From: an uncultured Eubacteriales bacterium
Lineage (GTDB): Bacteria; Bacillota; Clostridia; Oscillospirales; CAG-382
Length of the DNA: 36,576 nt
Direction of reading: 5' to 3'
NCBI GenBank assembly: GCA_900554405.1
Contig: USHI01000001.1
Coordinates: 1-36,576 of the forward strand
Each line of letters opens with the position of its first letter. Position 1 is the first letter of the stretch. The translations under genes were made by a program, and so were the position numbers. Shown piece by piece: positions 25,628 through 36,561 of this stretch. The notes beneath the pieces were generated by a model that had not been told where the DNA came from, did no database searches, and was given only the letters and a program-made list of their open reading frames with translations.

Positions 25628-25689
25628 AGGTGTAAACTCCTTTCATTCGGAAGTATATTCGGTTTTGCGGAAAAAGTGCAAAAAAGCTA

Positions 25690-25718
25690 TTGACAATGCC
25701 GCACGGATGTGGTAAAAT
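25690..25718 (+). promoter_or_regulatory. Sigma-A promoter of the infC-rpmI-rplT operon
   Basis: TTGACA (25690-25695), a 17-nt spacer, then TAAAAT (25713-25718). Confidence 0.6.
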
Positions 25719-25719
25719 C

Positions 25720-25866
25720 ACCGTTGCACAAAGAAGAAGGGCAAATGCTCTCACCCTCACGGCTTGGACGTGCGCGGTCAATATCTGTTTCACCCACGCG
25801 GGCGTATGCCTTCAGGGGGCGGTTTTGGCTGTGCAAAGCGGTGTGTGCGCTTTGCATTTTCTTTTT
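25720..25866 (+). promoter_or_regulatory. infC operon leader with terminator/attenuator (probable L20-responsive leader)
   Basis: About 170 nt of untranslated leader ends in the hairpin TGCAAAGCG-N7-CGCTTTGCA (25832-25856) plus TTTTCTTTTT, directly before the infC RBS. Firmicutes regulate this operon through an L20-binding attenuator. The class assignment rests on position only. Confidence 0.45.
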
Positions 25867-25893
25867 GTAAATTATTTTTGGAGGTGTCCTCTC

Positions 25894-26415
25894 ATCGCCG
25901 CTAAATCTTCTTCCCTCATAAACGAAGAAATAAGAGCAAACGAGGTTCGCGTTATCGGCGCGGACGGTACCCAGCTCGGCGTTATGAAGCTTGCCGAAGC
26001 GTTCCGCCTCGCAAACGAAGCCGAACTTGATCTTGTCCAGATCGCACCGGATTCGGTTCCGCCTGTCTGCAAGATAATGGATTACGGCAAATTCCGCTTC
26101 GAAAAGGAAAAGCGCGAAAAAGAACAGCGCAAGAAGCGTCAGGTCATCGAACTGAAAGAAATTCAGCTCAAATGCCGCATCGACACGCACGATTTCAACA
26201 CAAAGCTCAATCACGCGCTGAGGTTCCTTTATCAGGGCAATAAAGTGAAGGTCATCGTTAAATTCTTCGGCAGGGAAATGGCGCATACCGAACTCGGCGC
26301 CCAGCTTCTCGACCGCTTTGCCGCAGGCTGCGGCGAAGCAGCTTCCATTGAAAAGCCCGCTGTGCTCGACGGAAGAAATATGACGATGATACTCGCACCG
26401 AAAAAGACAAAATAA
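25894..26415 (+). CDS. infC: Translation initiation factor IF-3, probable non-canonical ATC start
   Basis: GGAGGTG (25880-25886) lies 7 nt before the ATC at 25894. There is no in-frame ATG, GTG or TTG between the RBS and the conserved INEEIRANEVRVIG block. The 173-aa product matches normal IF-3 length. Confidence 0.85.
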   Translation: MAAKSSSLINEEIRANEVRVIGADGTQLGVMKLAEAFRLANEAELDLVQIAPDSVPPVCKIMDYGKFRFEKEKREKEQRKKRQVIELKEIQLKCRIDTHDFNTKLNHALRFLYQGNKVKVIVKFFGREMAHTELGAQLLDRFAAGCGEAASIEKPAVLDGRNMTMILAPKKTK

Positions 26416-26433
26416 CCGAAAGGACCAATAATC

Positions 26434-26631
26434 ATGGGAAAAATCAAGACGCACAAGGCTTCCGCAAAGCGCTTTTCGTTCACCGGAACGGGCAAGGTCA
26501 AAATGGGCCATCCCGGCCGTCGTCACAAGACCGGTCTTAAAAACACCAAGCGCATGAGATCTCTTCGCAAGGCTGCATATGTCAGCAACGCACGCATGGA
26601 CGATCTGAAGAGACTCCTTCCTTATCAATAA
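26434..26631 (+). CDS. rpmI: 50S ribosomal protein L35
   Basis: 65 aa reading MGKIKTHKASAKRFSFTG.GKVK... Confidence 0.95.
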   Translation: MGKIKTHKASAKRFSFTGTGKVKMGHPGRRHKTGLKNTKRMRSLRKAAYVSNARMDDLKRLLPYQ

Positions 26632-26647
26632 TCGGAGGTTTTGAAAA

Positions 26648-27001
26648 ATGGCTCGAATCAAAGGCGCACTTGCCACCAGAAAAAGAAGAAATAAAATGCT
26701 CAAACTCGCCAAGGGTTACTGGGGCGCAAAGAGCAAGCATTTCAAAATGGCGAAGCAGGCCGTTCTCAAGAGCGGTAATTATGCATTTGCCGGCAGAAAG
26801 CTCAAAAAGAGAGATTTCCGTTCTCTCTGGATCACCCGCATCTCCGCGCAGTGCAAGGCAGAGGGTATCAACTACTCCCGCTTTATGTACGGCCTGAAGA
26901 AGAGCGGTATCGAACTCAACCGCAAAATGCTTTCCGAGCTTGCCGTGAACGATAAGGCAGCGTTCGCTTCCCTTGTCGAAACCGCAAAAAAGGCTCTTTA
27001 A
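26648..27001 (+). CDS. rplT: 50S ribosomal protein L20
   Basis: 117 aa reading [29 protein letters not shown]... GGAGG lies upstream. Confidence 0.95.
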
Positions 27002-27038
27002 GCGAAAAAATTTTTTCACGGGTAATTGATTTCTTTTG

Positions 27039-27067
27039 TTGACATATGTCGAATTATTTGATATAAT
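27039..27067 (+). promoter_or_regulatory. Sigma-A promoter of rpsU
   Basis: TTGACA (27039-27044), a 17-nt spacer, then TATAAT (27062-27067). Confidence 0.6.
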
Positions 27068-27120
27068 GTCCCCACTGGAAGCGATTTCCTCGGAAACCGA
27101 TGCAAGGGAGGGTTACAAAA

Positions 27121-27297
27121 TTGGCTGAGATCAGAGTTAAGGAGAACGAAACAATCGACAGCGCTCTTCGCAGATTCAAGAGGTCTTATCTCAGAAGCGG
27201 CGTTCAGGCTGAGCTTCGTAAGAGAGAACATTACGAAAAGCCCAGTGTCAAGCGCAAGAAGAAGTCCGAAGCGGCTCGCAAGCGCAAATACAGATAA
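27121..27297 (+). CDS. rpsU: 30S ribosomal protein S21 (TTG start)
   Basis: The TTG at 27121, 8 nt after GGGAGGG, gives a 58-aa protein (M)[20 protein letters not shown], the normal S21 length. The ORF-track ATG at 27100 overlaps the RBS. Confidence 0.88.
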
Positions 27298-27338
27298 AGC
27301 CTGTATCTCGCAATTTTGTTATAAAACAAAATACAAAC

Positions 27339-27370
27339 AGCACGGCGTAATAAACGCCGTGTTTTTGTTT
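27339..27370 (+). terminator. Intrinsic terminator after rpsU
   Basis: Stem AGCACGGCGT / ACGCCGTGTT with loop AATAA, running into GTTTTTGTTTT. Confidence 0.7.
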
Positions 27371-27381
27371 TCCGGCGGCTA

Positions 27382-27410
27382 TTGCAATTGCCGCTTTTTT
27401 GCGGTATAAT
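27382..27410 (+). promoter_or_regulatory. Candidate sigma-A promoter of the GH26-like lipoprotein gene
   Basis: TTGCAA (27382-27387), a 17-nt spacer, then TATAAT (27405-27410). Confidence 0.5.
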
Positions 27411-27441
27411 AGCTGCAGTTTACCGATATACGGAGGAAATA

Positions 27442-29289
27442 ATGAAAAGAATACTCGCACTCCTTCTTCTCATTTCAATGTCAATCGCCGCTTTAGCCGC
27501 GCTTTATGCCTGCAATGGTGTGGGTGATAACTCGTCATCCCCGCAAATATCAGATACAACGGAGGAATCTACATTGATACCCGATGAAAAAGCAAAGGAA
27601 TACTGGTCGGACAGCTACAAAGCACAGGGCTTTTCCGGCACGGACGATATCTTTGGCTTTACCCCCTATGAATACGAGGGCGACAAAAGATACCTCTTCA
27701 CCGGCAGGGAATCCACCCGCGCAGTCGTCTGCTCCGAGGGCTATGCCGTGACACTGCCCGGCACGGATGTGACCGCCGATTTCACGCTCGGCGCGCTCCG
27801 CAGCAAGTACAAGGCGGATAAATATGTTCTTACCGTCACATACGAGGATCAGAACCCGTACGGCAATACGGCGGATAAATTCGCGATATACTTCGATGAA
27901 TGGCTTACAAGATATCTCGAAAATGTCGATTTCCTTGCCGCGAACACCATACGCCGCACGCGTAAAGTGGGCGTTACGGAGGAGCTGCTCCCCGGATTCA
28001 CGGTGAATTATTACGATATGCAGATCAACCTTGCATCCAAGCTCGAATACGATTGTTACAGCATTGCCGTTGTCCGCCCGAAGGATAAATACGATTATTT
28101 CTGGCTGTTTGTCATGAAATCCGGCGACCCGATGCCCGAAACGCTCGATTCCATCGTCGCCTCTTTCACCGAGCTCGAAAAGAACGGCACGCCGAAGAAC
28201 ACTGTCGGCTCCTACGAGCTGCGTACCCCCGATTATTGGAGCGACGAAACAAAGGCGTATTTCGAAAAGCTGCAAAACCAGACAAGCGTCGATTTCGGCT
28301 GCTATTATGCGCAGAACGATGCCGAATATATCAAATGGCTCCAATCCGATGAAGCGCTCGCTCACCAAAACGAGATCTTCATGACATATTACCATATCGG
28401 CTGGTACGATACCAAGACATATGTCGATCTCGATCTGCTCCGCAGCAATGCGGGCGGAAACGGCTTCAACGGCAAACCGGTGCTTGAATTCACTTATCAG
28501 TTCACCACGACAAACAACCTGCTCGGCGGATATACGCCCATGTACGATATACTCCGCGGCAAGCTGGACGATCATTTCCGCAAGCTTGCACAGGATATAA
28601 AAGAATACGGCAAGCCCGTTCTTTTCCGCCTGAATAACGAAATGAATACCGACTGGACAAGCTATTGCGGCATTGTCACGATGCTCGATCCGGATATATT
28701 CATCGAAACCTGGCGCCGGCTTTACGATATATTCCGCGAGGAGGGCGTGGATAACTGCATTTGGATCTTCAACCCGATCGCGACATCCTGCCCGTACAGC
28801 AATTGGGGCGATATGCTCAACTACTTCCCGGGCGAGGATTATGTCCAAATGATCGGGCTTACGAGCTACCAGATGAACAACGATGATTCCTTTGCAACCT
28901 TCCGCGAAATGTATACCGAGCTGTACAAGAAGAACACCCCTTATTTCGACAATTACCCCGCGATAATCGGCGAATTCGGCTGCGGCGCGGGCGGCGAGGT
29001 CATATATAATTGGGATAAGGGCGCATATGTTCCCGTGGAGGATATCGAAACAAAGCGTGTCCGCCAGGCAGAATGGATCAAGGGAATGTTCGAATGCTTT
29101 GCGCACAATACCGAGCCCGGTTATGAATTCTGCCGTAATATCAAGATCGCCGTATGGTTCTCCGCGAACGATTACGCAGAGGTAAACGGCGAAACCAAGG
29201 TGCTGAACTACATCAAGCTCGACGAGGGTGTTCCGCTTGCGCTCAAAGCGCTTCGCGAAGGGCTCGCGGCGATGAACGCAGAGAAATGA
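27442..29289 (+). CDS. Lipoprotein with a C-terminal glycoside hydrolase family 26-like (mannanase-fold) domain
   Basis: Start at the ATG at 27442 (MKRILALLLLISMSIAALAALYAC, lipobox), preceded by GGAGGAAA. GH26-like blocks are PVLFRLNNEMNTDWTSYCG, IWIFNP, YFPGEDYVQMIGLTSY and IIGEFGC. The N-terminal ~330 aa are unassigned. Confidence 0.6.
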   Translation: MKRILALLLLISMSIAALAALYACNGVGDNSSSPQISDTTEESTLIPDEKAKEYWSDSYKAQGFSGTDDIFGFTPYEYEGDKRYLFTGRESTRAVVCSEGYAVTLPGTDVTADFTLGALRSKYKADKYVLTVTYEDQNPYGNTADKFAIYFDEWLTRYLENVDFLAANTIRRTRKVGVTEELLPGFTVNYYDMQINLASKLEYDCYSIAVVRPKDKYDYFWLFVMKSGDPMPETLDSIVASFTELEKNGTPKNTVGSYELRTPDYWSDETKAYFEKLQNQTSVDFGCYYAQNDAEYIKWLQSDEALAHQNEIFMTYYHIGWYDTKTYVDLDLLRSNAGGNGFNGKPVLEFTYQFTTTNNLLGGYTPMYDILRGKLDDHFRKLAQDIKEYGKPVLFRLNNEMNTDWTSYCGIVTMLDPDIFIETWRRLYDIFREEGVDNCIWIFNPIATSCPYSNWGDMLNYFPGEDYVQMIGLTSYQMNNDDSFATFREMYTELYKKNTPYFDNYPAIIGEFGCGAGGEVIYNWDKGAYVPVEDIETKRVRQAEWIKGMFECFAHNTEPGYEFCRNIKIAVWFSANDYAEVNGETKVLNYIKLDEGVPLALKALREGLAAMNAEK

Positions 29290-29390
29290 TCAAAGAATAA
29301 AACAAGCCTCCCGGCAAGTGAAGTGCACCCGAAAGCATCTGACTTTTGGGGTGCATATCACAAGCGGGGGGCTTATTTTTTTGCAATTTT

Positions 29391-30197
29391 TCAGGCGATC
29401 CCGAAAACCTTTTTTGCGGTATCGCAGAATATCTGCTGCTTTTCGGATCCCGTAAAGCCGCATTCATCCACAAGCGGGTAGGAAAATGCTGTCCCCCACA
29501 AGGGGTAATCGCTTCCGAACATTATCCGTTCCGTACCGTGCTTTTCGGCAAGCCGGTAAAGCCCGTGTGCATCCATTCCGAGGCGTGCTTCGCTTGTATC
29601 GGTGTACACGGGTGTGCCGATAAGGTACTTTTCGGCAAGCTCCCATACCGAATAGCCGCACATATGCGCGGCGATGATAACCAGCTCCGGAAACTTTTCC
29701 ATCACTGCACGCAGGCGCTTCGGGTGGGAAAGATCGCTTTTTGTATCCCCGACATGAAACAGTATCGGCAGCCCGAGACGTGCGCAAATGCGGTAGATTT
29801 CGACCGCAGTCGGATCGTCCGTGGCGAAATTCTGGAAATCCGGGTGCAGCTTCACGCCTTTCGCGCCGTTTTCTTTGGCATATATCAGCTCCTCCTCCGC
29901 AAGGGCAACGCCCATCGCGGGGTGGAAGGAGCACAGCGGGATAAAACGGGTGTCGCTTTTTGCCGTGCTCAGCAGAAAATCGTTTCCGTGGCGAACGGCT
30001 TCCGGCTTTAAGACGGCGGAGGATATGACAAACCTTGTGTTCGGCAGCCCTTCGCTCAGTGCCAAAAGGCATTCGGCTGTGCCGTCGCCCTGCCTGCCGA
30101 GGTGATAGTAGCTTGCGGTGTTTTCGGCGGCGCGCAGGGCAATCTTTGCCGGGAATATGTGGGTGTGTACGTCTATAATTTCTCTTTCGGTTATCAT
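29391..30197 (-). CDS. Amidohydrolase-family (TIM-barrel metal-dependent hydrolase, Amidohydro_2-like) protein
   Basis: Start at MITEREIIDVHTHIFP (ATG at 30197). The HxH metal motif and later conserved His/Asp residues (LFHVGD, FGSDYPLW) are present. Confidence 0.8.
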   Translation of the reverse strand: MITEREIIDVHTHIFPAKIALRAAENTASYYHLGRQGDGTAECLLALSEGLPNTRFVISSAVLKPEAVRHGNDFLLSTAKSDTRFIPLCSFHPAMGVALAEEELIYAKENGAKGVKLHPDFQNFATDDPTAVEIYRICARLGLPILFHVGDTKSDLSHPKRLRAVMEKFPELVIIAAHMCGYSVWELAEKYLIGTPVYTDTSEARLGMDAHGLYRLAEKHGTERIMFGSDYPLWGTAFSYPLVDECGFTGSEKQQIFCDTAKKVFGIA

Positions 30198-30218
30198 TTT
30201 GTGCCTTCGGTAGTGGTT

Positions 30219-30262
30219 AAAAAAAGCAAAAAGCACCGGAAACGGCGTTCCGCTTCCGATGC
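30219..30262 (-). terminator. Intrinsic terminator after the Cys/Asp-rich protein gene
   Basis: Minus-strand RNA reads GCAUCGGAA...UUCCGGUGC (9 bp including one G-U that exists only on this strand), followed by UUUUUGCUUUUUUU. Confidence 0.7.
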
Positions 30263-30290
30263 CTTTTTTTCCGTCAGGGTGTAAAAGAGG

Positions 30291-30758
30291 TTATTTGTCC
30301 TCTTCTTCGGATTCGTCCTCGTCGTCGGTCTGGACAAGGCTCAAAAGCTTGCCGCAGTTGGGGCATTCAAGCTCGTCGATCTCGTCTGCATCGCATTCGT
30401 CGATATAAACGGGCTTGCCGCAGGCGGGGCATTCAAGTTCCAGGCATTCGCAATCGCAATCGTCGTCATCGCAGCAGCAGTCGCAATCGTCGTCGCAGCA
30501 ATCGCAGTCGTCGTCGCAATCATCGCAGCAGTCGCAATCGCAGTAAAGCTCTTCTTCGACAGCGCCGAGATCCTCGTCAATCTCTTCGACATAATCGTTG
30601 AGCGTGGCGGTTTCGTCCTCCAGATCGAGCACGGAAAGCGAAAGGTCTTCGAGCAGATCCGCCATGGCGGAGATAACTTTGCCTTCGCCGTCGGAGGTGT
30701 CGATCTTCATGCCTTCGATAAGGCCTTTGATATAAGCGGCTTTTTCGGATACGGTCAT
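30291..30758 (-). CDS. Very acidic 155-aa protein with an N-terminal helical domain, a Cys/Asp run and a C-terminal zinc ribbon (CPACG...CPNCG); function unknown
   Basis: The ORF has AGGAG in AAGGAGTATTCTACAATG before the ATG at 30758. Conserved-looking N-terminus MTVSEKAAYIKGLIEGM. From memory it resembles clostridial proteins annotated as CD1247 N-terminal domain-containing, which I could not verify. Confidence 0.75.
   Translation of the reverse strand: MTVSEKAAYIKGLIEGMKIDTSDGEGKVISAMADLLEDLSLSVLDLEDETATLNDYVEEIDEDLGAVEEELYCDCDCCDDCDDDCDCCDDDCDCCCDDDDCDCECLELECPACGKPVYIDECDADEIDELECPNCGKLLSLVQTDDEDESEEEDK
30444..30542 (-). repeat. Low-complexity (TGY/GAY)n coding tract encoding CDCDCCDDCDDDCDCCDDDCDCCCDDDDCDCEC
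   Basis: 33 consecutive codons give 15 Cys, 17 Asp and 1 Glu. The plus strand reads as GCA/ATC/GTC triplet repeats. Confidence 0.9.
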
Positions 30759-30789
30759 TGTAGAATACTCCTTATATGATAAGTATTGA

Positions 30790-31347
30790 TCAGACGCGTT
30801 CGAGATATTCGCAGGAACGGGTATCGATCTTGATAACGTCGCCTTCGTTGATAAATATCGGAACTTTTACCTCGGCGCCGGTTTCGACGGTGGCGGGCTT
30901 GGTAACGTTCGTTGCCGTGTTGCCCTTCACGCCCGGTTCGGTGGCGGTGACTTCAAGCTCGACAAATATCGGAGGTTCAACAGAGAACACCTTGCCCTTG
31001 TAGGACATAAGGCGGCAGGTCATGCCTTCCTTGACAAACTTGAAGCTGTCGGGAAGCTGTTCCTTGTTGAGCGGTTCCTGATCGTAGGTGACAGGGTCCA
31101 TGAAATAGTAAAGGTCGCCGTCGTTGTAGCTGTATTCCATGTCTTTTCTTTCGACAACGGCCTGCGGGAATTTCGCGGTGGGGTTGAACGAGGTTTCGAT
31201 AACGGCGCCGGAGATGATGTTTCTCATCTTGGTGCGGACAAAAGCCGCGCCCTTGCCGGGTTTGACGTGCTGAAATTCGATAACCTGCATAAGTGCACCG
31301 TCCATTTCGAATGTCAAGCCGTTTTTGAAATCGCCTGCGGATATCAT
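30790..31347 (-). CDS. efp: Elongation factor P
   Basis: Start at [10 protein letters not shown] (ATG at 31347), preceded by AGGAGGA. The [15 protein letters not shown] loop is present. 185 aa. Confidence 0.95.
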
Positions 31348-31402: not shown

Positions 31403-31431
31403 ATTCTATATCATGCAGGGCGTTTTGTCAA
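31403..31431 (-). promoter_or_regulatory. Candidate sigma-A promoter in front of efp
   Basis: Minus strand reads TTGACA (31431-31426), a 17-nt spacer, then TAGAAT (31408-31403). Confidence 0.55.
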
Positions 31432-31448
31432 GAGCTTTTTGGCGGTTA

Positions 31449-32528
31449 TTAAAGCTCGATAAGCCCGCGCGGGCTTGCGGTGAGGTTTTCGCAGCCGTTT
31501 TCGGTCACGAGCACCATGTTTTCGATACGCACACCGAATTTTCCGGGGATATATATACCCGGCTCTACGGTCACAATGTTGCCGGGGACAAGTATATCGT
31601 CGCTTGCGGGGGACACACGCGGATTTTCGTGGATCTCCAACCCGAGCGAATGCCCGAGCGAATGCCCGAAGTATTCGCCGTAGCCCGCATCCGCAATGAT
31701 CTTCCGTGCAACACCGTCGGCATCCCTGCCGGAAACGCCGGCGCGGATATATTTCATCGCCTCGCTCTGCGCCTCGAGCACGGTGTTGTAGACGTGCTTC
31801 ATTTCGTCGCTTGCCTTGCCCACGACAACGGTGCGTGTCATGTCGCTGCAATATCCGTTGTATTTCGCGCCGAAATCCATTGTGAAGAAGGAATCCTTCG
31901 TGAGCCGTTCATCGCCGGGAACGCCGTGCGGAAGCGAGGATTTCTTTCCGGAAACGGCTATGGTATCGAACGCAAGCCCGGAAGCGCCGGATCTGCGCAT
32001 GAAATATTCCATTTCCGAGGCAACTTCCGCTTCCGTGCGGTCCCCGTTGATAAAGCCGCAGATATGCTCGAAGGTGAGATCGGTTATCCTCTGTGCGGCG
32101 CGGATGTTTTCGATCTCCGCTTCGGTCTTGACACGCCTGAATTCCAGAACGATATCCTCCATAAAGCCGAACTCAACGCCATCGCAGCGGCTTTGCAGCG
32201 TTTGGAGCTGCAAAACGCTCACGAGTGCAGGGTCCACGCAGACACGCTTTGCGCCGTGGGAGTAAAAATAATCGGCAATGACGGCATAGAAATTCCCTTT
32301 CAGGAGCATGGGGTGAACGTCCGCGGAAAGCTTGCCCGCCTTTTTCAGGCTGTCCGCCGCTTCGAAATAGCGCGAATCGGCAAACAGGGCGGTTTCCTCG
32401 CGGCTGACAATGACAATGTCGTCCGTCGTGTAAAAGTCGCTCAGATAATGCTGGCTCGTTTCATCCAGAAACAGCGCGCAATCGTATCCGGCGGCGCTGA
32501 TCTTTTCGTAAACCTTTCTTCCGTTCAT
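31449..32528 (-). CDS. M24-family Xaa-Pro aminopeptidase (aminopeptidase P type)
   Basis: Creatinase-like N-domain plus a pita-bread domain. The metal ligands lie in MDFGAKYNGYCSDMTRT, FGHSLGHSLGLEIHE and VTVEPGIY. Its position upstream of efp is a common synteny. Confidence 0.9.
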   Translation of the reverse strand: MNGRKVYEKISAAGYDCALFLDETSQHYLSDFYTTDDIVIVSREETALFADSRYFEAADSLKKAGKLSADVHPMLLKGNFYAVIADYFYSHGAKRVCVDPALVSVLQLQTLQSRCDGVEFGFMEDIVLEFRRVKTEAEIENIRAAQRITDLTFEHICGFINGDRTEAEVASEMEYFMRRSGASGLAFDTIAVSGKKSSLPHGVPGDERLTKDSFFTMDFGAKYNGYCSDMTRTVVVGKASDEMKHVYNTVLEAQSEAMKYIRAGVSGRDADGVARKIIADAGYGEYFGHSLGHSLGLEIHENPRVSPASDDILVPGNIVTVEPGIYIPGKFGVRIENMVLVTENGCENLTASPRGLIEL

Positions 32529-32543
32529 GGTATTTTCTCCTTT

Positions 32544-35079
32544 TTATGCTGTTACTATCCGCGCGGCATCGTGCAGCCCAAGCTGCTCCACCGCCTGCTC
32601 GCGCATTTTGTATTTGAGTATCTTTCCCGCCGCGTTCATCGGGAATTCGGTCACAAAGCTTACATAGCGCGGCGTTTTGTGCTTTGCCATATGCTCGGCG
32701 ACATAGGTTTTTATCTCGTCCTCCGTGAGCGTCATGCCGTCCTTCGGGATAACGCAGGCAAGAATTTCCTCGCCGTACTGCCTGTCCGGTACGCCGATAA
32801 CCTGAACATCCTTTACCTTCGGGTGGGTGTATATGAAATCCTCGATCTCTTTGGGATATATGTTTTCGCCTCCGCGGATGATCATATCCTTTATGCGCCC
32901 GGTGATCTTGAAATAGCCGTTTTCATCGCGCCGTGCAAGGTCGCCGGTGTGCAGCCAGCCCTCCGCATCGATGGCAAGCGCAGTCGCCTGCGGCATTTTG
33001 TAATACCCCTTCATGATATTGTATCCGCGCGCGACAAATTCGCCGTCGGTACCGTCGGGGAGCTCTTCGCCGGTTGACGGGTCCACGATTTTGCATTCCA
33101 CGCCGAACATTGCGGCACCGACAGTGTTCACGCGTGCTTCGATGCTGTCCGTCGTGCGGCTCATCGTGCAGCCGGGCGAAGCCTCCGTCTGACCGTAGGT
33201 GATGCAGATCTCGGACATATGCATTTTTTCGATAACATCCTGCATGACCTTTATCGGGCAGGGCGAGCCCGCCATGATCCCGGTGCGCATGTGCGAAAAA
33301 TCGGTTTTGGCAAAGCTTTCGTGCCCCAGCATTGCAATGAACATCGTGGGAACGCCGTGAAAGCAGGTTATCTTTTCGCGGTTGATGCAGTCCAGCGCGA
33401 TCCGCGGCGAAAAACGGCTGATCGGCGACATCGTCACCCCGTGCGTGACGGCAGCCGTCATGGCAAGCACCATGCCGAAGCAGTGGAACATCGGCACCTG
33501 TATCATCATTCGGTCGGCGCTCGAAAGATCCATGCAGTCGCCGATGTTTTTGCCGTTGTTTACGATATTGTAGTGCGTGAGCATGACACCCTTCGGGAAG
33601 CCCGTCGTGCCGGAGGTGTACTGCATATTGCAGACGTCGTGCTTGCTTATAAGCGAGCTGCGGCGGTATACCTCCTCTGCGGGGACATCGTCCGCAAGAG
33701 CAAGCGCATCCTCCCAGGTGAAGCAGCCCTCGCAGCGGCTCTGCACCGTGATAATGTTGCGCAGGAAGGGAACGCGGCGTGCGTAAAGCGGAGTTTTCGG
33801 GTCGTGTCCGGCAAGCTCGGGGCAGAGCTCGCGGATTATCGCGTTGTAATCGCTGTCCTTAAAGCCGTCGCACATGACAAGCGTGTGCGTGTCGGACTGG
33901 CGGAGCAGATATTCTATTTCATATATCTTGTAAGCCGTGTTGACGGTGACCAGCACCGCGCCGATCTTGGTCGTCGCCCAGAAGGTGATATACCATTGCG
34001 GAAGGTTTGTCGCCCATATCGCAACATGGTCGCCGCGCTTCACGCCCAGCGCGATAAGCGCACGGGCAAAACGGTCGACATCGCTGCGGAACTGCGGGTA
34101 GGTGCGGGTATAGTCGCATTCGGTAAAGCGGAAGGCGTATTGGTCGGGGAACGCCTCGCACACGCGGTCGAGAAGCTGCGGAAAGGTCAGGTCGATCAGC
34201 ATATTCTTTTGCCAGATATATCTGCCCGCGCCGCGCAGATCGGGGATAAGCGTGTCCGCTGCCGTGCGCCCGCCGAGGAATGCCGACATATAGTTTACAT
34301 AATGCGGAAACACTATGCCCGCATCCTGCAGGTCGGGAGCCCATTGCTTCACCCATTCCAGCGACAAATATCCCTCGTAATTGATGCTTTCGAGTGCGCC
34401 GATGATATCCGCAACGGGCATATCGCCTTCGCCCATCAGGCGGTATTGCACGGTTCCGTCCTCACAAACGCTGTCCTTTATGTGAACATAGGCGATATAC
34501 ATCCCGAGGTTCTGCACGGTTTTTTCGGGCGATTCGGCGCAGAAGCGGTAGGGATGGTGAACATCCCAAAGCGCCTTGACCGCATCACTTTCGGCGCGGT
34601 CGAGCAGCGCCTTCAGGCGTGCGGTATCGCTGTAAACACCGTTTGTTTCGACCAAAAGCGTTACGCCTGCTTCCTCTGCCGCCGGTATGAGCGCTTTGAG
34701 CTGCGCAAGGACTTCTTCATCGTCGACATCGTTGCCGGGGTTTATCACGTCGTCGCCGAGAACACGGACAAATCCGCAGCCGATCCTGCCTGCGGCGGCG
34801 ATGTATTCGCGGGTAAACACGGCGGTTTTCCGCCGCGCGGTCGTTATATGCAAGGCAGGCGCCGGAGGAAAAGCAGGAAACCGCGAGCCCCAGCGCGGAA
34901 AGCTTTTTCGCGGTATACATAATGTTGTCGGGCGAAAACGGGGTGACGTTTCTTCCGTCGGAAAGATCGTTGCCGAGCCCGCGGACTTCGATCCCGTCGA
35001 ACCCGAGGTCGGATGCCATTGCGCAGATATCGCCGAAGCCGTATCCGGGGCAGGCGAGCGTGGAGAAAGAGAGCTTCAT
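32544..35079 (-). pseudogene. Fusion gene of a xylose-isomerase-like TIM barrel (sugar phosphate isomerase/epimerase family) with an AMP-dependent acyl-CoA synthetase/ligase, disrupted by a 1-nt frameshift near 34826-34829
   Basis: The N-terminal 75-80 aa of the TIM barrel (MKLSFSTLACPGYGF...CFSSGACL) are in the frame of ORF 34717..35139. The rest (REYIAAAGRIGCGFVRVLGD...LSLEW) continues in ORF 32544..34853 and runs without a stop into the ligase (YTSGTTGFPKGV, GWLHTGDLARRDENGYFKITGRIKD). The total span is 3n+1 nt. Confidence 0.7.
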
Positions 35080-35098
35080 TGTGTGTGTTCCTTTGCCT

Positions 35099-35136
35099 AA
35101 AAAATAAAAATACCCGGTCAAAAGCAAAAGACCGAG
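35099..35136 (-). terminator. Intrinsic terminator at the 3' end of the leader, about 20 nt before the RBS of the TIM-barrel/ligase gene
   Basis: Minus-strand RNA reads CUCGGUC-UUUUGCUUUU-GACCGGG followed by UAUUUUUAUUUUUU. Confidence 0.65.
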
Positions 35137-35345
35137 CAAAAGGGCTTGAACCGAAAATTATCACTTGCATTGCACGCCGAACAGCGGCTCTCGTTGATAA
35201 CGGTGAGAAACCCGACCGACCCCTAAATGATTTCGGGGCGGCAGCTCCGGGGTGAGATCGCGTTGCGCAATGCTGCCGTCTTGCACCGACCGACGGCTCT
35301 CTGAAAAGCATTCTCGCAGGCTTTTTCCCCTTCATTGCTTTTTAC
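35137..35345 (-). promoter_or_regulatory. Structured GC-rich 5' leader of unknown class (riboswitch/attenuator candidate)
   Basis: It lies between a consensus promoter and a terminator. It has several hairpins, two mutually exclusive helices and duplicated 8-9-nt motifs. No convincing coding potential. Confidence 0.5.
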
Positions 35346-35429: not shown

Positions 35430-35467
35430 CCGTTCAAGGTCAGAATTTATTTACCGGAGGAAGCATC

Positions 35468-36535
35468 ATGTCCAAAATGAAGGTTGCGATCATCGGCTGC
35501 GGCTGTATCGCAAACAATGCGCATATTCCCGCCTATATGGCGAACCCCGATGTCGAGATAAAGTATTTCTGCGATATCATCAGGGAAAAGGCCGAAAAGT
35601 GTGTCGAAAAGAACAACTGCGGCACCGCTATCGAAGATTACCACATCGCTCTGAACGATCCCGAGATCGAAGCAGTTTCGGTCTGCACTCCCAACAGAAT
35701 GCACACCCAGATATCCATCGATGCTCTTAAAGCAGGCAAAAACGTGCTTTGCGAAAAGCCTGCCGCAAGAACTTATGCCGAAGCAAAGCTCATGCAGGAA
35801 GCTCAGCACGAAACCGGCAAGGTACTCAATATCGGCGTTGTCAATCGCTTCAATGCCGGCGTAAACAAGCTGCGCGAGCTTATCCAGTCCGGCGAGCTCG
35901 GCGAAATTTATCACATCTATGTCAGCTTCCGTGCTCACCGCTCCATTCCGGGGCTCGGCGGTGCCTTTACCACCAAGGAAATCGCCGGCGGCGGCGTTCT
36001 TATCGACTGGGGCGTTCACTACCTCGATATAGTCATGTACTGCATGGATGATCCCAAGCCGCTCACCGTTTCCGCAAAAGCGTTCTCCAAGCTCGGCGTG
36101 GATATGCCCAATTATGTTTACGAGGGTATGTGGTCGGAAGAAACCAAGAACGTCAACGGCACCTATGATGTCGACGACTTCGTTACCGGCTTTGTCCGCA
36201 CCGAAGGCCCCACCATTACCTTCAACGGCGCATGGGCACAGAATATCGGCGTTGCCGAAACCTATATCGACTTTATCGGTACCAAGGCGGGCGCACGTCT
36301 TCAGTACGGCAGCGATTTCACCGTTTATACCACCGCTTGCGGCGGGCTCGTTTCGCTCAAGCCCAAATTCACTGCGAACAATATGTTCCAGAACGAGATC
36401 GACAGCTTCATCCGCTGCATCCGCACCGGCGAAAAGCTTCCTTCCCATATCGACAAGGCTGTCATCACCTCCCGCATGATGCAGGCGATGTACGATTCCT
36501 CCGACGAGGGCAAGGAAATCGATCTTTCCAAATAA
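35468..36535 (+). CDS. Gfo/Idh/MocA family oxidoreductase
   Basis: MKVAIIGCGCIANNAHIPAY Rossmann start and the EKP motif (LCEKPAA). 355 aa. Confidence 0.9.
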   Translation: MSKMKVAIIGCGCIANNAHIPAYMANPDVEIKYFCDIIREKAEKCVEKNNCGTAIEDYHIALNDPEIEAVSVCTPNRMHTQISIDALKAGKNVLCEKPAARTYAEAKLMQEAQHETGKVLNIGVVNRFNAGVNKLRELIQSGELGEIYHIYVSFRAHRSIPGLGGAFTTKEIAGGGVLIDWGVHYLDIVMYCMDDPKPLTVSAKAFSKLGVDMPNYVYEGMWSEETKNVNGTYDVDDFVTGFVRTEGPTITFNGAWAQNIGVAETYIDFIGTKAGARLQYGSDFTVYTTACGGLVSLKPKFTANNMFQNEIDSFIRCIRTGEKLPSHIDKAVITSRMMQAMYDSSDEGKEIDLSK

Positions 36536-36561
36536 ACCCGTTAAATACCGCAAAAAAGCCC

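Follow-up and report, generated by a model that had tools for sequence, protein, structure and literature searches.

SlyD, HypB and UreE carry Cys/His/Asp-rich metal-binding tails, in which a disordered, low-complexity stretch of ligand residues is attached to a folded domain. Metallothioneins are the other point of reference for a dense run of thiolates, and for these we used an operational yardstick of less than ~10 kDa, 15-30% Cys arranged as CxC, CC or CxxC, and few aromatic residues. Dph3/Kti11 is an acidic CSL zinc finger that serves as the electron donor for diphthamide synthesis on eEF2. The gene of elongation factor P (EF-P), efp, occurs universally, and study of the accessory genes EpmABC, EarP and YmfI has in each case uncovered new biochemistry. 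Here we compare with these systems a gene found in a stretch of 36,576 nucleotides (nt) from an uncultured Eubacteriales bacterium (contig USHI01000001.1 of assembly GCA_900554405.1, positions 1 to 36,576; the whole of this stretch is referred to as the window). The gene lies immediately downstream of efp and its product contains a run of 33 residues made almost wholly of Cys and Asp. The product combines a striking composition with strict linkage to efp, yet it is an ordinary member of a very large catalogued family, the CD1247 family, and its mechanism is not demonstrable by sequence alone.

The protein and its Cys/Asp run

The gene was taken from the list of open reading frames (ORFs) and their translations as ORF 30291-30758 on the minus strand, which begins with ATG and encodes 155 residues. 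The gene and its parts are:

30291-30758, minus strand: CD1247-family gene, 155 residues plus stop (ORF, translation and NF045650 match)
30543-30758, minus strand: N-terminal helical domain, residues 1-72, family-defining (NF045650 over residues 4-72, and AlphaFold2)
30444-30542, minus strand: Cys/Asp run, residues 73-105, predicted disordered, imperfect (TGC GAY)n (sequence, AlphaFold2 and Tandem Repeats Finder)
30532-30542, minus strand: direct repeat TGCGATTGCGA, copy 1, codons 73-76; one edge of the deletion in locus L081
30448-30458, minus strand: direct repeat TGCGATTGCGA, copy 2, codons 101-104; the other edge of the L081 deletion
30339-30443, minus strand: C4 zinc ribbon, residues 106-140, with CPxCG knuckles C110/C113 and C132/C135 (alignment, AlphaFold2 and weak generic zinc-ribbon matches)
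30294-30338, minus strand: acidic disordered C-terminal tail, residues 141-155 (sequence and AlphaFold2)

Residues 73-105, CDCDCCDDCDDDCDCCDDDCDCCCDDDDCDCEC, comprise 15 Cys, 17 Asp and a single Glu (nt 30444-30542), and the run, the counts and the coordinates given in a preliminary description of this gene were found to be exact. All fifteen Cys codons are TGC, and the Asp codons are divided between GAC (nine) and GAT (eight). The DNA of the run is an imperfect triplet repeat and not a clean microsatellite, as Tandem Repeats Finder returned arrays with periods of 6, 9, 18, 21 and 27, all multiples of three, at low scores only. The tract is 45% Cys, with CDC, CC and CCC motifs, compared to 13% for the whole protein, which contains 58 Asp plus Glu, seven Lys plus Arg, 20 Cys and no His. 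On its 3' side the run is followed by a CPACG-x17-CPNCG zinc ribbon and then by the tail TDDEDESEEEDK.

At a typical combined frequency of ~13% for Cys, Asp and Glu, the chance of 33 consecutive residues of these three kinds is calculated as ~1e-29. Besides the run, a six-frame scan of the window found one stop-free stretch of 20 residues with six Cys, located elsewhere on the minus strand in another frame; this stretch is basic and rich in Arg, Ser and Pro, and was read as presumed off-frame translation. The Cys/Asp run is not due to chance. Two ORFs, presumed shadows of the repeat, overlie the tract, one encoding poly-Ser/Gln (30415-30546, plus strand) and the other rich in Ala, Thr and Ile (30341-30592, minus strand). 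Both were rejected as genes because only the Cys/Asp frame joins the conserved flanking domains in all homologues.

An AlphaFold2 model was built from an alignment of 52 sequences (alignment A1). It consists of a short helix (residues 3-15) and a long helix (residues 24-72), both with a predicted local distance difference test score (pLDDT) above 90, then residues 73-104 without structure (pLDDT below 50 at residues 80-101), a small beta ribbon at residues 105-140 (pLDDT 74-89) and a disordered tail. The residues invariant in the alignment are C110, P111, C113, C132, P133 and C135 in the ribbon and E5, K6, K11, G12, G16, K27, D38, Y56, E59, D61, L64 and E68 in the N-terminal domain (N-domain). 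A Foldseek comparison of the model with the PDB gave nothing below E 0.4, and its matches were generic small zinc ribbons, many of them ribosomal, while sequence and profile searches of the PDB returned generic zinc ribbons and coiled coils only. A DksA/TraR-type regulator was considered and rejected as there is no zf-dskA_traR Pfam match. The DksA-like layout was rejected as well, since it calls for a coiled coil of two helices, acidic at its tip, before the finger, and the model shows a short helix, a long helix and then a disordered spacer.

The CD1247 family, its spacer and its linkage to efp

The protein is a member of the NCBIfam family NF045650, 'CD1247 N-terminal domain-containing protein', which it matches with 76 bits (E 2.5e-21; cutoff 30) over residues 4-72 and profile positions 2-70 of 70. 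The CD1247-like family had been named in the preliminary description, and this match bears it out. NF045650 is the sole NCBIfam match of the protein, and a Pfam scan returned no family at E<=1. The NF045650 model spans the N-domain only, with the tract and the ribbon lying outside it, and its name derives from a locus tag of Clostridioides difficile 630.

The family was found to contain 2240 proteins at E<=1e-3 in a word-indexed search, 1955 cluster representatives at 50% identity (491 below 1e-10), and at least 6100 proteins among the matches listed for a profile built from distant members. All twenty-four distant members tested against NF045650 match it. The named sources are Oscillospiraceae, Ruminococcus, Acutalibacteraceae, Lachnospiraceae and unclassified Clostridia or Eubacteriales, mostly from animal guts. 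We found nothing relevant in the searchable literature on the CD1247 family, on its link to efp or on bacterial Cys/Asp-rich tracts. The window protein is a typical though Cys-rich member of a large catalogued family without described function. Tandem arrangements were also observed, in which two or more copies of the unit of acidic spacer and zinc ribbon follow a single N-domain (P0271-P0277 and P0206); P0206 has 620 residues and eight matched stretches.

The tract occupies the position of a spacer between the N-domain and the ribbon, and statistics of this spacer were obtained for 318 members of all depths and for a separate set of 114 nearest homologues. In the 114 nearest homologues spacer length ranges from 9 to 70 residues (median 37.5); the median number of Cys is 13, and Cys, Asp and Glu together make up 89%. 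The richest tracts have ~20 Cys, in spacers no longer than 70 residues. Over the 318 members, the spacer consists of Asp (42%), Cys (19%), Glu (16%), Tyr (4%) and Gly (2.8%), with only 0.4% Lys plus Arg. The preliminary description had proposed examining whether homologues carry the Cys/Asp insert, and the answer is divided: an acidic spacer is always present and 76 of the 318 members have at least 11 Cys in it, but 136 have two or fewer and 70 have none. Negative charge and disorder are universal in the spacer, whereas thiolates are common but optional. As Cys-free members exist, the tie of the family to efp cannot depend on thiolates.

Seventy-two distinct spacers occur in the genomes of 75 species. 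Their composition is kept over loci whose content of guanine plus cytosine (GC) ranges from 36 to 63%, with TGC and TGT and with GAC and GAT codons alike, which argues for selection on the composition of the protein and not for an accident at the DNA level. A change from Cys (TGY) to Asp (GAY) requires two substitutions, via Tyr or Gly, and these two are the next commonest spacer residues after Asp, Cys and Glu. With Cys lying two substitutions from Asp, its enrichment is unlikely to be mutational spill-over from an Asp run.

The spacers of other members also contain patches of His, Cys and Gly, for example CGCGHHHHH and HHHHHH, and His runs or His/Pro patches mark some lineages (CGCGHHHHH, SHHHHHHGRHGCC and HPHPHFPPHHFHDE; P0303, P0171, P0251, P0036, P0042 and locus L074); thus a second class of metal-ligand residue has been recruited to the same position. 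Cys-rich C-terminal tails such as CDCGCC and CGCGHDHDHE were found in 80 of the 318 members. Outside the family, DUF4342 proteins of Anaerovoracaceae, Aminipila and Anaerovorax have acidic Cys-rich ends (e.g., DDYDCDCDCCEYDENCGCGCSDDWGEC...SCCCCG), with at least four Cys after residue 165 in 106 of 119 homologues (P0400-P0518; L087:1501-2205). The acidic Cys-rich composition has thus arisen also in an unrelated family of anaerobic Clostridia. The earlier statement that the run is not a standard domain holds, but the same composition is found in these tails and in DUF4342.

The genome-locus counts cover the best 80 species-level loci. In all 80 of them efp lies directly 5' of the family gene on the same strand, with a median of 32 nt between the efp stop and the start of the family gene. 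pepP lies 5' of efp in most of these loci, an amidohydrolase gene lies 3' of the family gene in about half, and a hairpin with a T-run occurs within 110 nt downstream in 71. Three much more distant members, one of them in a complete Oscillospiraceae genome, keep the order of pepP, efp and the family gene with wholly different genes downstream (ApbE/Rnf; an iron-containing alcohol dehydrogenase on the other strand; peptidase M3). The pairing with efp is the only constant of the neighbourhood and its strongest regularity, and the pepP-efp synteny with efp directly upstream, also named beforehand, was recovered in the 80 loci and the three distant contexts. No radical S-adenosylmethionine (radical-SAM) or other modification enzyme was found to be conserved beside the pair in the window, the 80 loci or the three distant contexts.

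Length change in the tract and the surrounding locus

Over ~520 aligned bases a metagenomic copy of the gene, L081, shows two substitutions relative to the window (~99.6% identical). Within the tract it carries an in-frame deletion of exactly 84 nt, or 28 codons, whose edges are the 11-nt direct repeat TGCGATTGCGA. Since this repeat is shorter than normal assembler k-mers, the deletion is interpreted as a probably genuine allele that would have arisen by slippage or recombination. The species representative (L001, 95% identical) has a 6-nt deletion and reshuffled Cys/Asp codons with synonymous changes, and other close relatives encode 153-155 residues with indels in the tract as their only differences. 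The suggestion made beforehand, that the cryptic triplet repeat could expand or contract in frame, is supported by both the repeat periods and the 84-nt deletion.

Misassembly of the low-complexity tract had been named as a possible objection. It was rejected for the window because the identical tract occurs in independent assemblies, namely in P0001 (a cluster of 43 sequences), in P0003 and on an independent scaffold, L086, where identity to the window is 99.88% over positions 26291-30544 with the whole run included.

Scaffold L086 itself contains a 268-residue 'protein' (P0062; L086:3913-4719) whose C-terminal 85 residues coincide with the part of the window protein that begins at the first Cys of its run. 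Its N-terminus is that of a DUF4342 protein, 100% identical to a protein of Anaerovoracaceae, in which the native DUF4342 gene sits between recO and glyS. The junction at ~L086:4466 corresponds to window position 30544, and ACTGCGATTGCGACTGCTGCGA, a sequence of 22 bases identical in both genes, lies exactly there, inside the tract. On one side of the junction L086 carries a recO-DUF4342 locus of Anaerovoracaceae, and on the other the 3' part of the window-type gene, the amidohydrolase gene and the GH26 gene. Given the complete identity of the N-terminus to Anaerovoracaceae and the 22-base identity at the join, L086 is most likely an inter-taxon chimera and P0062 a false fusion. A number of other database entries of the family leave the reading frame inside the tract or directly behind it and end in Ala/Thr/Ile-rich or Ser/Pro-rich tails (P0178, P0061, P0143, P0242, P0248 and P0268); either the repeat was wrongly sequenced or assembled in them, or the frameshift alleles are real. 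The tract is a practical hazard, as its length differs between near-identical strains and it has most likely made an inter-species chimera of one public scaffold.

The features around the gene in the window, from upstream to downstream, are:

31449-32528, minus strand: pepP-type Xaa-Pro aminopeptidase (Pfam Creatinase_N and Peptidase_M24)
31403-31431, minus strand: sigma-70-like promoter match TTGACA-17-TAGAAT in the pepP-efp interval (11 of 12 hexamer positions; consensus match only)
30790-31347, minus strand: efp, elongation factor P, 185 residues from MISAGDF..., with the loop KPGKGAAF (Pfam EFP_N, EFP and Elong-fact-P_C)
30768-30773, minus strand: AAGGAG ribosome-binding site, 9 nt 5' of the ATG (sequence reading)
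30218-30267, minus strand: intrinsic-terminator-like hairpin (18-pair stem) with a T-run (hairpin scan)

The stop codon of efp and the ATG of the CD1247-family gene are 31 nt apart on the same strand, and no terminator was seen in this gap. On the simplest reading the two genes would form a two-gene transcript, for which TTGACA-17-TAGAAT is a candidate promoter. The hairpin and T-run downstream, at 30267-30228, correspond to the terminator that the preliminary description had assigned to the gene. On the 3' side of the family gene lie an Amidohydro_2 hydrolase and then a GH26 enzyme (Pfam).

Rfam and tRNA scans of the window returned no match. Two long antisense ORFs, 31413-33077 (plus strand) against pepP and 27550-29106 (minus strand) against the GH26 gene, are presumed to be shadows of GC-rich or repetitive coding DNA. 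A 769-residue ORF (32544-34853, minus strand) joins part of a xylose-isomerase-like TIM barrel (AP_endonuc_2, limited to profile positions 63-231) to a complete AMP-binding acyl-CoA synthetase. Several related genomes have matches to this same long ORF (75-98% identity), which may be a true fusion or may have a wrongly placed start. Three further minus-strand ORFs, 34844-35335 (163 residues), 35447-36553 (368 residues) and 25687-26712 (341 residues), have no Pfam match at E<=1e-5.

Proposed function and comparison with known systems

Of the readings considered, metal binding by the tract has the best support; it is plausible and is drawn from composition alone. We infer chelation because the tract consists of ligand residues only, with Cys enriched against the mutational grain, because His joins in other members and the same composition recurs in the C-terminal tails and in DUF4342, and because the hosts are strict anaerobes in which thiols stay reduced. 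Taken jointly, the best explanation, which we put forward tentatively and with less than even confidence, is that of a cytoplasmic, hyper-acidic CD1247 protein co-transcribed with efp that has a metal-binding spacer and a core linked to EF-P or translation. The locus would then be a two-gene unit in which a small, hyper-acidic, cytoplasmic CD1247-family protein is co-transcribed with efp. The protein is built of three modules, namely the conserved helical N-domain, the disordered polyanionic spacer, and the C4 ribbon with its acidic tail. The length and sequence of the spacer turn over rapidly, probably by in-frame slippage between short direct repeats, whereas its composition, with Asp ahead of Cys, Cys ahead of Glu and scarcely any Lys or Arg, is conserved, presumably by selection. 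In this lineage the 15 thiolates and 18 carboxylates would provide a high-capacity, low-specificity site for divalent metal (Zn, Fe, Co, Ni or Cd) in the manner of metallothionein or of the Cys/His/Asp-rich tails of SlyD and HypB, and the long helix probably forms a coiled-coil dimer that would double the number of ligands. The weakest step is the core job of the family, which the N-domain and the ribbon would carry out and which would be linked to EF-P or translation; the Cys-rich tract may be a lineage-specific, tunable add-on to this job.

Several observations weigh against this explanation. The argument for metal binding is one of composition alone, the AlphaFold2 model gives the tract no fold, and the Pfam scan of the window protein found no metallothionein or other family. 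In known metallothioneins Lys balances the charge of the clusters; a tract of Cys and Asp would keep a strong negative charge, which is unusual. Since 70 of the 318 members have no spacer Cys and 136 have two or fewer, thiolate chemistry is not the conserved function of the family. The proposed dimer is based on one long amphipathic helix and generic coiled-coil matches only. The link to EF-P is drawn here from gene order alone, and pepP-efp is part of an old conserved gene order of Firmicutes.

The main rival reading is that the spacer is a polyanion or nucleic-acid mimic whose conserved properties are charge and disorder. By way of its N-domain or ribbon the protein would bind something basic, which might be the ribosome, a ribosomal protein, EF-P or RNA polymerase, and the Cys residues would be no metal site but tolerated or mildly useful filler in the reducing cytoplasm of strict anaerobes. 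The delta subunit of Firmicute RNA polymerase, with its acidic C-terminal region, offers a precedent, and one source labels a member of the family 'RNA polymerase subunit delta'. Acidity is universal and Cys facultative, many members having pure Asp/Glu/Tyr spacers; the link to efp is strict; and the best fold matches of the ribbon, although non-significant, are small ribosome-bound zinc-ribbon proteins. The universal acidity and the efp link are better accounted for by a polyanion than by metal binding. A purely electrostatic role, however, leaves the enrichment in Cys (19% family-wide and 45% here, two mutations from Asp) unexplained. The same enrichment recurs in the C-terminal tails and in DUF4342, often with His, which points to selection for ligands and not for charge alone, and no partner was identified. 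We regard a polyanion role as possible but rather unlikely. The two readings are compatible, as metal binding could be an elaboration, specific to the lineage, of a core function that is tied to EF-P. A bolder and quite doubtful proposal is that CD1247 proteins are dedicated EF-P partners in Clostridia, with the N-domain and ribbon binding EF-P or the ribosome near the E site and the hypervariable tract coupling EF-P activity or lysine modification to metal or redox status. If true, this would add a new accessory factor, equipped with a slippage-tunable sensor module, to a universal translation factor.

A redox or electron-transfer role, with Fe held by CPxCG-CPxCG as in rubredoxin or with Fe-S clusters in the tract, would serve the modification or repair of EF-P in the way that Dph3/Kti11 serves eEF2. 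CPxCG knuckles are also typical of rubredoxins, and the gene is tied to a translation factor with a Lys32-type loop (KPGKG) of the kind modified in Bacillus. DPH3/Kti11 chains were matched weakly by profile (E 7e-4 to 0.03) and Zn_ribbon_CSL gave sub-threshold matches in seven of 24 members. All of these ribbon similarities are of a generic kind; none reaches its curated cut-off, and dozens of other zinc-ribbon families turn up beside them. In the Pfam scan of the window protein no rubredoxin or CSL (Dph3) hidden Markov model scored above its cutoff. A conserved radical-SAM or modification enzyme was not found beside the pair, and Fe-S clusters are unlikely to be held by a tract that is disordered and acidic. 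Nothing in particular favours an Fe-S or redox role, which we judge improbable. Loading of the acidic C-terminal tail with a covalently bound substrate, as in the amino-group carriers LysW and ArgW, is suggested by the acidic zinc ribbon and acidic tail common to both, by a weak match to the Thermococcus LysW chain 5k2m_E (E 0.009; profile E 3.3e-4), and by matches of Zn_ribbon_LysW in 13 of 24 members (best E 3.4e-8) and of NF041070 in four of 24. The window protein itself is without a Pfam match, and the similarity seen in its relatives is weak and of the same generic zinc-ribbon kind. LysW requires a conserved C-terminal Glu of the EDWGE type, but the C-terminus here is variable (...EEEDK, ...DAE, ...TED, ...CDCE), that of the window protein ending in ...SEEEDK, and genes for ATP-grasp LysX/ArgX or for lys/arg functions are not part of the conserved neighbourhood in the window, the 80 loci or the three distant contexts. 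Because the C-terminus is not conserved and the partner genes are absent from the neighbourhood, a LysW-like carrier was rejected as very improbable. Cys/Asp-rich cores and Cys-Asp thioethers are known from the ranthipeptides of Firmicutes, which would allow the tract to be the core of a ribosomally synthesized and post-translationally modified peptide (RiPP), for example one with Cys-to-Asp thioethers made by a radical-SAM enzyme. The tract is, however, internal to a 155-residue protein and flanked by folded domains. No radical-SAM/SPASM gene, protease or exporter was found in the window neighbourhood or the conserved synteny; with no maturase in the neighbourhood, a RiPP precursor was rejected as extremely unlikely. 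An artefact of assembly or gene calling has in its favour that the tract DNA can mislead assemblers, as in L086, and that some entries are frameshifted in it. It is refuted for the window by the identical tract in independent assemblies, and the conservation of frame, composition and flanking domains in thousands of homologues, together with the efp context in 80 of 80 loci, leaves it a negligible chance.

A gene tied to efp in all 80 clostridial genomes examined and without described function is a concrete and cheap target for study. Should the tract bind metal, such Cys/Asp tracts would give the anaerobes of gut and rumen a kind of metal-buffering sequence not described before in bacteria.

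Compared with the metallothioneins, including the bacterial SmtA and BmtA, the tract is similar in its 45% Cys, its CxC, CC and CCC motifs, its lack of aromatic residues and its predicted disorder without metal. The tract by itself agrees with the yardstick given above; the protein as a whole has 155 residues and 13% Cys. The tract differs in matching no metallothionein by sequence and in being embedded in a three-module protein of 17 kDa; its counter-residues are Asp and Glu and not Lys, Ser or Gly, it is hypervariable in length and sequence, and Cys is absent from many CD1247 members. The tails of SlyD, HypB and UreE are resembled by the CD1247 members with CGCGHHHHH and CGCGHDHDHE patches. 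Their host domains are unrelated, the stretch in the window is dominated by Asp and Cys and has no His, and nickel, hydrogenase and urease genes are not among its neighbours in the window. The likeness to metallothioneins and to SlyD/HypB tails is therefore one of composition and presumed mode, as every sequence-based test of membership failed.

LysW and ArgW share with the CD1247 protein a small acidic C4 zinc ribbon, an acidic tail and weak sequence similarity, whereas the CD1247 protein has an additional N-domain and spacer, no conserved C-terminal motif and no partner enzymes. Dph3/Kti11 is likewise a small acidic protein with a Cys4 metal site that is tied to a translation elongation factor and matched weakly by profile, but these matches are generic and sub-threshold, the domain context differs and no radical-SAM partner is present. 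The DUF4342 tails of Anaerovoracaceae have the same composition as the window tract (e.g., DDYDCDCDCCEYDENCGCGC) and share 22 identical coding bases with it, although their folded domain is unrelated, their locus is recO-DUF4342-glyS, and the tail is terminal and not internal, with no zinc ribbon after it. From the NF045650 family the protein does not differ, and its N-terminal ~70 residues, its architecture and its linkage to efp are the same as in all relatives examined.

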